From the NCBI RefSeq assembly GCF_024502345.1, contig NZ_JALDNN010000001.1: a DNA stretch of 64,000 nucleotides; one strand, given 5' to 3'. This document shows, in pieces, positions 48,596 to 50,710 of the stretch. The DNA is from Escherichia coli. Its GTDB lineage: Bacteria > Pseudomonadota > Gammaproteobacteria > Enterobacterales > Enterobacteriaceae. The stretch's first letter is position 1; every line of letters starts with the position of its first letter. Position numbers and translations under genes: made by a program. The notes under the pieces were generated by a model. The model had not been told where the DNA came from and made no database searches. It was given only the letters and a program-made list of their open reading frames with translations.

Positions 48596-48622
48596 ATCAT
48601 CACTTAACCAGAACGTGATGAT
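48596..48622 (-). terminator. Conserved hairpin downstream of immunity gene 4 (island left edge)
   Basis: ATCATCAC-N11-GTGATGAT inverted repeat ~28 bp after the immunity stop; related to the hairpins after the other three immunity genes. Confidence 0.45.
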
Positions 48623-48649
48623 TTTCAGGTGACAGATTCTGTTTAGAGT

Positions 48650-48886
48650 TCATTCTGAATCTTTGAACAAAGGCAATCCTTGCGAACGCCGCCATTCTTT
48701 GACGATTTTCAGGATGTTTTCAGGTTTACCATCTTCTGGGGAATTAGGATAGAAAATGGGATCTCCCTTTTTAGGATGTTCAGTAATTTTAATGAAATGA
48801 TCCACTAAGGTATCGAGATATTTTTCTAATTTTTTCCCTTTTAGGGATTTATCTTTGCTAGTTGCATTTACTATCTCCTCAAGCAT
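48650..48886 (-). CDS. Colicin-E-type DNase immunity protein homolog, orphan cassette 3 (5' end apparently frameshifted)
   Basis: Im9-like C-terminal region (ENILKIVKEWRRSQGLPLFKDSE) and ITEHP core; the canonical ATG (48939-48941) is out of frame with the body, leaving an internal Met start (MLEEIV). Confidence 0.6.
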   Translation of the reverse strand: MLEEIVNATSKDKSLKGKKLEKYLDTLVDHFIKITEHPKKGDPIFYPNSPEDGKPENILKIVKEWRRSQGLPLFKDSE

Positions 48887-48986
48887 TTCAAGAAATTCAC
48901 CTTCTGTGTAAAAATATATTTTAAATCATGCATATACATTATCTCCTGTAGTGAATTTCATCATGTAGTCGAGACGTAACAATCCT

Positions 48987-49175
48987 TTAATTATCAATAT
49001 CATAAATTTCGCCACCACATTCAATCGCAACACTATGATATATATGGAATTCTTCAACAATTTCCTTAGATCCATAATGCCAACCTTCAAGAGGCGCTTT
49101 TGCGATTAATCCTTGTTTTATACGTGTTTGGTTACCAGTTGAAAACTGCGCTATCAACTCCGGATACTGACTCAC
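48987..49175 (-). pseudogene. Orphan C-terminal fragment of colicin-E-type HNH DNase domain (cassette 3)
   Basis: Begins at the junction LWLEVSQ(Y)PELIAQFS shared with the full-length toxin; no ATG (GTG only); in-frame TAA replaces the Leu codon after ..YDIDN, with the remaining LHDEIHYRR codons intact downstream. Confidence 0.6.
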
Positions 49176-49287
49176 CTCCAGCCAAAGGGTATCGGTGAAA
49201 GCGGGAAATTGATAAAATAACCTAATGAGATTTCAGTATTTTACCTGTTTTTTAAGAGCACCCACATTATTATTTTATGTTATTAAC

Positions 49288-49314
49288 ATCATCGCATTAG
49301 CCAGACGCGATGAT
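49288..49314 (-). terminator. Conserved hairpin downstream of immunity gene 3
   Basis: ATCATCGCAT-TAGCCAG-ACGCGATGAT (one stem mismatch). Confidence 0.45.
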
Positions 49315-49341
49315 GTTCCATATATAGTTTTATTATCTACT

Positions 49342-49632
49342 TTATTTAGAGTCTTTAAACAAGGGTAGCCCCTGTGAACGCCGCCATTCTTTGACAATTT
49401 TCAGGATGTTTTCAGGTTCATCATCTCCCTTCTTTGCAGGATAGTAGATAAGATCGCTCATCAACGGATGTTGTGTAATTCTGGTAAGATGTTCTTCTAG
49501 ATCATCCCAATATTTGTCAAGCTCTTCCCCTTTTAATTGAGCGTTATCCCCGGTTGGATTTGTAAACTCGCCAAGCAACTCAATGAATTCCCGCTCTGTG
49601 TAATCTTCTATTTTATCTTTAAAATTATACAT
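49342..49632 (-). CDS. Colicin-E-type DNase immunity protein homolog (orphan cassette 2)
   Basis: 96 aa: DYTEREFIELLGEF, ITQHP, DLIYYP, VKEWRRSQG, paralleling Im9 (DYTEAEF.., TEHPSGSDLIYYP, VKQWR); Shine-Dalgarno AGGAGA in the upstream fragment's 3' end. Confidence 0.8.
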   Translation of the reverse strand: MYNFKDKIEDYTEREFIELLGEFTNPTGDNAQLKGEELDKYWDDLEEHLTRITQHPLMSDLIYYPAKKGDDEPENILKIVKEWRRSQGLPLFKDSK

Positions 49633-49872
49633 TTAACTATCTCCTGTAATAAATTTCATCATGCAAATGAGGTGTGCCCTCCTTAAATTATCAATATCGT
49701 AAATTCCGCCACTATATTCAATCGCAACACGATGATCCATGTGGAATTTTTTAACGATTTCTTTAGTGCCATAATGCCAACCTTCAAGTGGTGCTTTTGC
49801 GATTAATCCTTGTTTTATACGTGTTTGATTACCGCTTGAAAACTGCGCTATCAACTCCGGATACTGACTCAC
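49633..49872 (-). pseudogene. Orphan C-terminal fragment of colicin-E-type HNH DNase domain (cassette 2)
   Basis: Starts at the LWLEVSQ junction without ATG; homologous to toxin residues ~515-593; a 1-nt deletion after NLR puts the terminal LHDEIYYRR in another frame. Confidence 0.6.
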
Positions 49873-49985
49873 CTCCAGCCAAAGGGTATCGGTAAAAGCG
49901 GGAAAATGATAAAATAACCTAATGAGGCTTCAGTATTTTTACCTGTTTTTTAAGAGCAATCACATTATTATTTTATGTCATTAAT

Positions 49986-50012
49986 ATCATCGCATTAGCC
50001 AGATGCGATGAT
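49986..50012 (-). terminator. Conserved hairpin downstream of immunity gene 2
   Basis: ATCATCGCAT-TAGCCAG-ATGCGATGAT perfect 10-bp stem. Confidence 0.45.
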
Positions 50013-50039
50013 GTTCCATATATAGTTTTATTATCTACT

Positions 50040-50330
50040 TTATTTAGAGTCTTTAAACAAGGGTAACCCCTGTGAACGCCGCCATTCTTTGACAATTTTC
50101 AGGATGTTTTCAGGTTCATCATCTCCCTTCTTTGCAGGATAGTAGATAAGATCGCTCATCAACGGATGTTGTGTAATTCTGGTAAGATGTTCTTCTAGAT
50201 CATCCCAATATTTGTCAAGCTCTTCCCCTTTTAATTGAGCGTTATCCCCGGTTGGATTTGTAAACTCGCCAAGCAACTCAATGAATTCCCGCTCTGTGTA
50301 ATCTTCTATTTTATCTTTAAAATTATACAT
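50040..50330 (-). CDS. Colicin-E-type DNase immunity protein homolog (orphan cassette 1; identical product to cassette 2)
   Basis: 96-aa product identical to the 49342-49632 ORF; Im9-like motifs as above. Confidence 0.8.
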   Translation of the reverse strand: MYNFKDKIEDYTEREFIELLGEFTNPTGDNAQLKGEELDKYWDDLEEHLTRITQHPLMSDLIYYPAKKGDDEPENILKIVKEWRRSQGLPLFKDSK

Positions 50331-50570
50331 TTAACTATCTCCTGTAATAAATTTCATCATGCAAATGAGGTGTGCCCTCCTTAAATTATCAATATCGTAA
50401 ATTCCGCCACTATATTCAATCGCAACACGATGATCCATGTGGAATTTTTTAACGATTTCTTTAGTGCCATAATGCCAACCTTCAAGTGGTGCTTTTGCGA
50501 TTAATCCTTGTTTTATACGTGTTTGATTACCGCTTGAAAACTGCGCTATCAACTCCGGATACTGACTCAC
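50331..50570 (-). pseudogene. Orphan C-terminal fragment of colicin-E-type HNH DNase domain (cassette 1)
   Basis: Identical in translation to the 49633-49872 fragment; GTG at the junction, same 3' frameshift. Confidence 0.6.
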
Positions 50571-50683
50571 CTCCAGCCAAAGGGTATCGGTAAAAGCGGG
50601 AAAATGATAAAATAACCTAATGAGGCTTCAGTATTTTTACCTGTTTTTTAAGAGCAATCACATTATTATTTTATGTCATTAAT

Positions 50684-50710
50684 ATCATCGCATTAGCCAG
50701 ATGCGATGAT
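50684..50710 (-). terminator. Conserved hairpin downstream of the cognate immunity gene
   Basis: ATCATCGCAT-TAGCCAG-ATGCGATGAT, 28 bp after the immunity stop. Confidence 0.45.

Follow-up and report, generated by a model that had tools for sequence, protein, structure and literature searches.

The PAIusp island and its hairpins

The 64-kb stretch of Escherichia coli DNA analysed here (contig NZ_JALDNN010000001.1, called the window throughout) carries a 5-kb insert flanked by pdhR and aroP, the small island PAIusp, in which a hairpin-forming sequence recurs downstream of every immunity gene of the toxin Usp. The assignment to PAIusp reflects the presence of usp and downstream immunity genes of family PF01320 between aroP and pdhR (PMC7142922, PMC3685522). 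One classification treats Usp as an Hcp effector whose toxin domain is extended (PMC6730261), and Usp is also named among the polymorphic toxins (PMC4436062). The toxin gene and its cognate immunity gene are followed by three orphan modules, each composed of a truncated DNase fragment and an immunity gene, and the island holds no open reading frames (ORFs) other than usp, the immunity genes and the DNase fragments (Table 1). Strain CFT073 has the same kind of island at the same site.

An earlier note on this DNA had placed a hairpin, in slight variants, about 28 bp after the stop codons of four immunity genes. The hairpins lie where the note put them. The immunity ORFs are on the minus strand, and 27 nt past each of their stop codons a hairpin core begins. 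A covariance model built from 14 hairpin variants and run unfiltered over the whole 64 kb found exactly these four sites, each as a minus-strand match with E ≤ 6e-10; the best match elsewhere had an E-value of 2.3. The description as slight variants fits the three internal copies: a pattern search of the window recovered copies 1 and 2 with no mismatch and copy 3 with one, when shuffled sequences led us to expect none. Copy 4, at the end of the array, is clearly divergent, yet the covariance model ranked it first. The fourth immunity gene is frameshifted because of a 7-bp deletion (AAAGATA) right after its start codon, near 48924 (48920-48934 compared with 3700-3730 of the CFT073 locus, L001). 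The intact allele of this gene is the first immunity gene of CFT073 and the cognate one there.

The arms of copies 1 and 2 are perfectly complementary. The single A-to-G change in copy 3 creates a G.U pair, and its stem reaches 13 bp (AAC...GUU). Copy 4, which reads ATCATCAC-TTAACCAGAAC-GTGATGAT on the plus strand, has core arms of 8 bp and a loop of 11 nt, and the GCUACGAGAAGG that follows it looks like a decayed remnant of the 3' end of the toxin gene with a ribosome-binding site. Folded as sense RNA, copies 1 to 4 had energies of -12.6, -12.6, -17.7 and -15.8 kcal/mol, with z-scores ranging from -3.4 (copy 1) to -5.5 (copy 3) and a value of -5.1 for copy 4. The agreement among copies 1 to 3 is not independent evidence of constraint, because all three belong to a 698-bp tandem unit and immunity genes 2 and 3 are identical. 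The orphan module (fragment, immunity gene, hairpin and spacer) is repeated at 49342-50737 as units 1 and 2, which are 98% identical, a pattern indicative of recent unequal crossing-over at the repeated spacers.

Table 1. Features of the PAIusp locus in the window
Feature	Position	Strand	Remarks
Hairpin copy 1, internal type I	50677..50717, core 50684-50710	-	Sense RNA AUCAUCGCAU-CUGGCUA-AUGCGAUGAU; 48.5 bits, E 5.9e-10
Hairpin copy 2, internal type I	49979..50019, core 49986-50012	-	Identical to copy 1; in the duplicated 698-bp unit
Hairpin copy 3, internal type I	49281..49321, core 49288-49314	-	One A-to-G change from the pattern
Hairpin copy 4, array-end type II	48589..48629, core 48596-48622	-	Sense RNA GAAAAUCAUCAC-GUUCUGGUUAA-GUGAUGAUUUUC; 57.9 bits
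usp	51025..52806	-	Toxin of 593 amino acids; Hcp (type VI secretion system tube), S-type pyocin and colicin/pyocin DNase domains (PMC7142922, PMC6730261)
Immunity gene 1	50738..51022	-	94 amino acids, PF01320; cognate to the usp of the window
A/T-rich spacer, hairpin 1 to orphan module 1	50571..50676	-	Two further copies, at 49873-49978 and (shorter by 1 nt) 49176-49280
Orphan DNase C-terminal fragment 1	50331..50570	-	5'-truncated; PF21431 positions 54-112
Immunity gene 2	50040..50330	-	96 amino acids
Orphan DNase fragment 2	49633..49872	-	Duplicate of fragment 1
Immunity gene 3	49342..49632	-	Protein identical to the product of immunity gene 2
Orphan DNase fragment 3	48987..49175	-	ORF and domain evidence
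Immunity gene 4	48650..48934	-	Frameshifted; intact version is the first immunity gene of CFT073
pdhR	47430-48195	-	aceE also on the minus strand
aroP	53384-54757	+	Other flank of the island

Three further features of these islands were recorded. A small hydrophobic ORF on the opposite strand ends at the hairpin (MRLQYFYLFFKSNHIIILCH) but was rejected as a gene because copy 3 interrupts its reading frame and a deletion removes its start codon in CFT073. A perfect palindrome of 15+15 nt with no spacer (AACGCCATTACCAGT/ACTGGTAATGGCGTT) lies at 52642-52671, within the Hcp-coding part of usp. In CFT073, an IS3-family insertion (L001 5741-6954) separates the end of the island from pdhR; the window lacks it.

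Conservation of the stem across genera

Hairpins of one family stand after the Usp-type immunity genes of at least four genera, represented by Escherichia (including the CFT073 island), Salmonella, Superficieibacter and the uncultured enterobacterium UBA5654. UBA5654 was the only further lineage with the family to emerge from an immunity-gene-based scan of one genome per species. Related PF01320 immunity genes of Lelliottia, Citrobacter sedlakii, Pectobacterium, Pseudocitrobacter, Lonsdalea and Serratia are followed by other hairpins or by none. In an alignment of the 14 variants, 91.4% of the cells were paired and four pairs had changed on both sides; for example, one stem position is occupied by G-C, G.U or A-U and another by C-G or A-U. 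The covariation score was 0.194, compared with 0.119 in shuffles, and none of 500 shuffles reached 0.194. When the structure was shifted by 1-3 columns, only 18-63% of the cells could pair. Thus, the stem has been kept across genera by compensatory substitutions, and the hairpin is real and more than an artefact of duplication. Two loci (L041 and L042) were left out of the variant counts because these public assemblies contain many single-base indels, with the usp frame broken many times, which would yield false hairpin variants.

Salmonella has its island at the same aroP-pdhR site, where usp is followed by one to six immunity genes that repeat with an exact period of 360 bp; orphan toxin fragments are absent. 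The spacers are 69 nt long and run from the stop codon through 23 nt, the hairpin GAAAAUCAUCAC-GUUCUG-GUGAUGAUUUUC and ACUACAGGAGG to the next AUG. The sequence 3' of the hairpin corresponds to the last few codons of the toxin gene, ribosome-binding site included, and an outer helix (CUGUA/UACAG) extends the structure to that site, with a folding energy of -23.7 kcal/mol. Salmonella loci L026-L032 have exactly the terminal hairpin of E. coli, between flanks that differ on both sides. Superficieibacter has its array at a different chromosomal site, with internal-type hairpins in which pairs have changed (CGUGU/ACGCG). These hairpins precede the same A/T-rich spacer that follows the internal copies in E. 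coli and longer orphan fragments of 114 amino acids.

In UBA5654, the 3' arm of the stem (AUCAUCGCAUC/GAUGCGAUGA) runs directly into the 3' end of the toxin gene (GAUGAAAUCCACUACAGGGAG), a form that links the two hairpin types and looks like the product of a deletion through GAUGA microhomology. A third genomic context (L038-L040) carries a related hairpin, ACAUCACUAU...AUAGUGAUG, with a folding energy of -18.8 kcal/mol, followed by a toxin remnant of 45 nt. The length of the orphan toxin remnant varies from 114 amino acids in Superficieibacter and 79 in E. coli to about 15 in L038-L040 and about 7 in Salmonella and UBA5654, and a hairpin follows the immunity stop codon in each. The homology of the long form to usp begins at GTCCCGCTTTCA, and that of orphan fragment 1 of the window at LWLEVSQ. 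The E. coli fragments look derived from longer ones of the Superficieibacter kind (50560-50600 compared with L003 5600-5770), apparently by a deletion between two TGGCTGGA repeats (WLD...WLE).

Hairpin type and position in the array

A UUUC follows the stem of the array-end type, and the internal type has no U-tract there. CFT073 has the internal type, AACAUCAUCGCGU-CUGGCUA-AUGCGAUGAUGUU, at both of its internal junctions and, as in the window, the terminal type, GAAAAUCAUCAC-GUUCUGGUUAA-GUGAUGAUUUUC, after its last immunity gene. The cassettes themselves are arranged differently, in the order A,B,B,C in the window (48650-51022) and C,A,B in CFT073 (L001 3700-5367). The identical cassette B is internal in the window and terminal in CFT073, and the two copies agree up to a point about 40 nt short of the stop codon, just past AAAGAATGGCGGCGUUC, from which they continue as the internal or the terminal version. 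Cassette C makes the same switch in the reverse direction. Both mapped crossovers fall about 65 nt upstream of the hairpin, where the 3' part of the immunity gene encodes the conserved segment KEWRRS, and this ties the hairpin type to the position in the array rather than to the cassette. As a separate observation, the two orders are cyclic permutations of each other in which the C-terminus of the toxin always matches the first immunity gene, in agreement with the published PAIusp subtypes.

The array as a whole, as distinct from the hairpin, resembles the orphan arrays of contact-dependent inhibition (cdiA-CT/cdiI) and Rhs systems, in which a full toxin and its cognate immunity gene precede 5'-truncated toxin fragments with immunity genes of their own and conserved segments permit switching by homologous recombination.

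The earlier note had raised the possibility that the hairpin is a recombination site marking cassette ends. As a junction acting at the DNA level, the inverted repeat could extrude as a hairpin or cruciform and promote or mark cassette shuffling in the manner of integron attC sites. A hairpin does occupy every module boundary, much as the tandem cassettes of an integron each carry, 3' of a small gene, the imperfect inverted repeat attC. Strains also differ in their cassette order, and the Salmonella arrays of one to six immunity genes resemble cassette arrays. The 3' arm and the toxin 3' end also share GATGA microhomology, and since UBA5654 has exactly that fusion (GATGCGATGAAATCCACTACAGGGAG), the arm has served as a deletion endpoint at least once. 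However, the hairpin stays with its position while the crossovers lie in coding sequence, which argues against a site that marks cassette ends, and the long conserved coding blocks suffice for ordinary homologous recombination. No integrase or other recombinase is encoded in the island between aroP and pdhR, and there is no attI. The hairpin flanks (TTAAC/GTTCC, TTAAT/GTTCC or AAAA/TTTT) do not match the attC core sites RYYYAAC...GTTRRRY, and AAC...GTT is missing from several copies. attC sites are usually 57-141 nt long, and the Usp element is 27-41 nt. Finally, wobble pairs in the stem favour one strand, which would be unexpected for a double-stranded cruciform, a bias that is not significant. 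We therefore reject an integron-like reading for lack of an integrase, a matching core consensus and crossovers at the element, and we consider a DNA-level junction quite improbable.

Confinement to the island

Among 5,426 complete E. coli genomes, the internal-type hairpin was present in 1,050, at 1-4 places each, and the terminal type in 1,058, exactly once in each; all copies in this set were chromosomal and none was on a plasmid. In the islands inspected (the window and CFT073), every copy is inside PAIusp. The motif is thus not the common genome-wide repeat that would have spoken against a specific element, as a usp-positive genome has only one to four internal copies and one terminal copy. 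It has neither the many scattered copies nor the consensus of a repetitive extragenic palindrome (REP), bacterial interspersed mosaic element or other dispersed repeat. A separate, REP-like hairpin, GCCGGATG...CATCCGGC, which is not of the Usp type, follows the last immunity gene of L038-L040 (about 4260-4300), between rsmI and a phosphotransferase system operon.

A search of the island against Rfam (E ≤ 5) returned chance-level matches only, none overlapping the hairpins. The PAIusp papers that we searched mention no terminator, hairpin or inverted repeat, and in the polymorphic toxin array literature that we searched we found no conserved structured junction element described. The sequence family of the Usp hairpin is new, and the kind of element is a familiar one.

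Termination, read-through and resemblance to the colicin T1 hairpin

The stems are stable, at -12.6 to -17.7 kcal/mol in the window and as low as -23.7 kcal/mol in Salmonella, but A/U-rich: of their 8-13 pairs, 3-5 are G-C. The earlier note had remarked on the absence of a clean U-tract and had listed a weak terminator among its options. The first point holds for the three internal copies, which are followed by AUUAAUGAC or AAUAACAU and lack the U-rich tract of an intrinsic terminator, but the terminal copy is followed by UUUC. U-tail scores, obtained with a simple formula after TransTermHP, were -1.8 to -2.5 for the internal type and -3.65 for the terminal and Salmonella types, compared with -3.53 for the leaky T1 hairpin of ColE plasmids and -4.17 for the hairpin after the lysis gene. 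A consensus terminator scan of the E. coli and Salmonella sequences flagged no Usp hairpin. Weak termination is thus plausible for the array-end type only, on the strength of its UUUC and of a score close to that of T1.

Transcription past the hairpins seems required. Of the downstream immunity genes, 2 and 3 have intact ORFs and 4 is frameshifted, and every immunity duplicate reportedly neutralises the toxin and contributes to protection (PMC6730261). A promoter scan of the E. coli and Salmonella sequences detected promoter-like sites no more often than in shuffles, with no internal excess within the modules, so these genes have no evident start signal of their own. A match to TTTAAA-16-GATAAT at each immunity stop codon suggested a transcript start at the hairpin; we dropped this candidate because the match is not conserved in the other hairpin type or in another genus.

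The closest known counterpart is the T1 stem-loop of colicin operons, which is reported to end only part of the transcripts, to have a CsrA site in its loop and to protect the downstream cel mRNA (PMC2896534). Both elements sit directly 3' of a PF01320 nuclease-bacteriocin immunity gene in a polycistronic unit, and T1 and the array-end or compact Usp form are both stable hairpins whose tail amounts to a short UUUC. In ColE-type plasmids, the hairpin lies 5 nt past the immunity stop codon and is followed by UUUCACAACAAGGAG (UUUCAC..AGGAG) and the AUG of the lysis gene. The compact form of Salmonella and UBA5654 has the same layout, in which UUUCAC..AGGAG leads to the start of the next cistron. 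However, the gene downstream of the Usp hairpin is an immunity gene or an orphan toxin fragment instead of a lysis gene, and the hairpin is repeated up to six times per array. The internal E. coli type also differs in lying about 350 nt from the next start codon and in having no U-tract. The covariance model R1 had no match in two ColE plasmid loci (L009 and L010), the arm sequences are unrelated, and none of the Usp loops (CUGGCUA, GUUCUGGUUAA, GUUCUG and CCUGAU) contains the GGA needed for the dual CsrA site of T1. The next ribosome-binding site (ACAGGAG) does contain GGA. The Usp hairpin is thus a positional analogue of T1 and not a sequence homologue.

A protein could recognise the element, either as a palindromic DNA operator or as an RNA loop bound by a regulator such as CsrA or by an immunity protein. 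The perfect complementarity of the arms in copies 1 and 2 would suit a binding site, as would a loop core, CUGG(C/U)UAA, that internal and terminal types share in E. coli, Salmonella and Superficieibacter. The loop of ColE7 T1 is bound by CsrA (PMC2896534), and Imu3 is reported to bind nucleic acids (PMC3917654). The loop is shortened or altered, however, in the internal copies of Salmonella and in UBA5654, and the GGA motif on which CsrA binding to T1 depends is in no Usp loop. To our knowledge, the hairpin sequence also bears no resemblance to the boxes of TyrR, PdhR, LexA or Fur. A protein-binding site appears very improbable.

A putative role in the immunity-gene mRNA

Based on these sequence features, we propose with moderate confidence that the hairpin is an intercistronic stem-loop of the mRNA that acts as a leaky attenuator or a barrier to decay. 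The element would form in the sense mRNA of the usp-immunity transcription unit, directly 3' of each immunity cistron. The promoter of usp is P3 of aroP (PMC7142922), and transcription from it would pass through the hairpins. Once transcribed, they could attenuate elongation in part and block 3'-to-5' exonucleases, thereby setting how much of each immunity message survives relative to the sequence downstream, an effect like that reported for T1 in the operons of E-group colicins. In the compact or array-end form, the stem is followed by UUUC and then by the ribosome-binding site of the next immunity gene, and in the compact form it may also provide a protective 5' structure for the following cistron.

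Intercistronic and 3' stem-loops such as the REP elements of the malEFG operon block 3'-to-5' exonucleases. By analogy, a stable hairpin between cistrons could confer segment-specific stability on the mRNA, although the Usp hairpin does not have the REP sequence, is not dispersed and is confined to one island. Among the options offered in the earlier note, an RNA stability or processing element is the one that the data favour, if indirectly, as a stem kept between cistrons in four genera by compensatory and wobble changes.

The wobble pairs also bear on the strand. The variants compared were 17 distinct ones on the sense strand, drawn from 20 sources (18 rows, including one antisense read of a Superficieibacter copy). 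Intact copies had 12 sense-strand G.U cells, from at least five events, and a single C.A cell inside the stem, an excess that is suggestive of sense RNA. Several observations weigh against the proposed role. The bias amounts to about five events to one (P ~0.1) and is not significant. Folding energies gave a mixed outcome as a test of strand; for example, the commonest internal variant of E. coli folds more strongly as antisense (-19.3 versus -12.6 kcal/mol). The covariation derives from few independent events among related sequences, and relatedness inflates all the measures of constraint; the related hairpin sequences also probably undergo gene conversion. E. coli and Superficieibacter have in common not the hairpin alone but the entire internal spacer, so some of the conservation could be due to recent exchange and not to function. 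Nor is the element universally kept. Among the Salmonella arrays L004, L005 and L043-L051, all multi-gene ones of the S. salamae type have a decayed array-end hairpin (GUGGUAGUUUGC) beside intact internal copies; one internal Salmonella copy has decayed as well (L004 7032-7067), and the last immunity gene of Superficieibacter has no such hairpin.

Some of these observations would be expected if the hairpin were a passive relic, that is, the 3' terminator of an ancestral single toxin-immunity operon that was copied along with the modules and now lies idle at internal positions. Decayed copies and a spacer conserved over its whole length are consistent with such an origin. Three of the four copies in the window are accounted for by the recent 698-bp duplication, and unrelated hairpins are common after PF01320 immunity genes elsewhere (Pseudocitrobacter, Lonsdalea, Serratia and ColE plasmids), as for terminators at operon ends. 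Yet a stem maintained by compensatory changes in four genera speaks against an idle relic, as does a hairpin that outlived at least three different deletions removing much or nearly all of the adjacent orphan toxin DNA. In the multi-gene Salmonella arrays, precisely the array-end copy, the only one that could terminate the operon, has decayed, and the internal copies are intact. The internal type is also a poor candidate for a former terminator because it lacks a U-tract. We regard a relic as fairly unlikely.

A more specialised possibility, which we consider doubtful, is that the hairpin is a cis-element dedicated to immunity-gene arrays whose function goes beyond passive stabilisation. In one form of this possibility, the helix would bring the immunity stop codon beside the following ribosome-binding site. 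The extended helix of Salmonella ends exactly at GGAGG and could support translational coupling along arrays of up to six genes. In another form, an immunity protein or a nuclease might recognise the hairpin and process the polycistronic mRNA into separately stable immunity messages. ImmE7 reportedly cuts the mRNA of its own operon in a T1-dependent manner.

Implications for toxin and immunity arrays

Hairpins after bacteriocin immunity genes are a familiar class, so specialists will not be surprised by the presence of one here. The arrays also provide a small, clean case of remodelling, in which the hairpin was kept and its type stayed bound to position while the orphan toxin remnants were whittled away. 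Usp is a genotoxin and an effector of the type VI secretion system kind, present in about a fifth of complete E. coli genomes, mostly those of extraintestinal pathogens. The hairpin bears on whether the orphan immunity genes are expressed, and, as it follows each immunity cistron, it offers a concrete, mutable handle on the balance between toxin and immunity protein in the producer cell.

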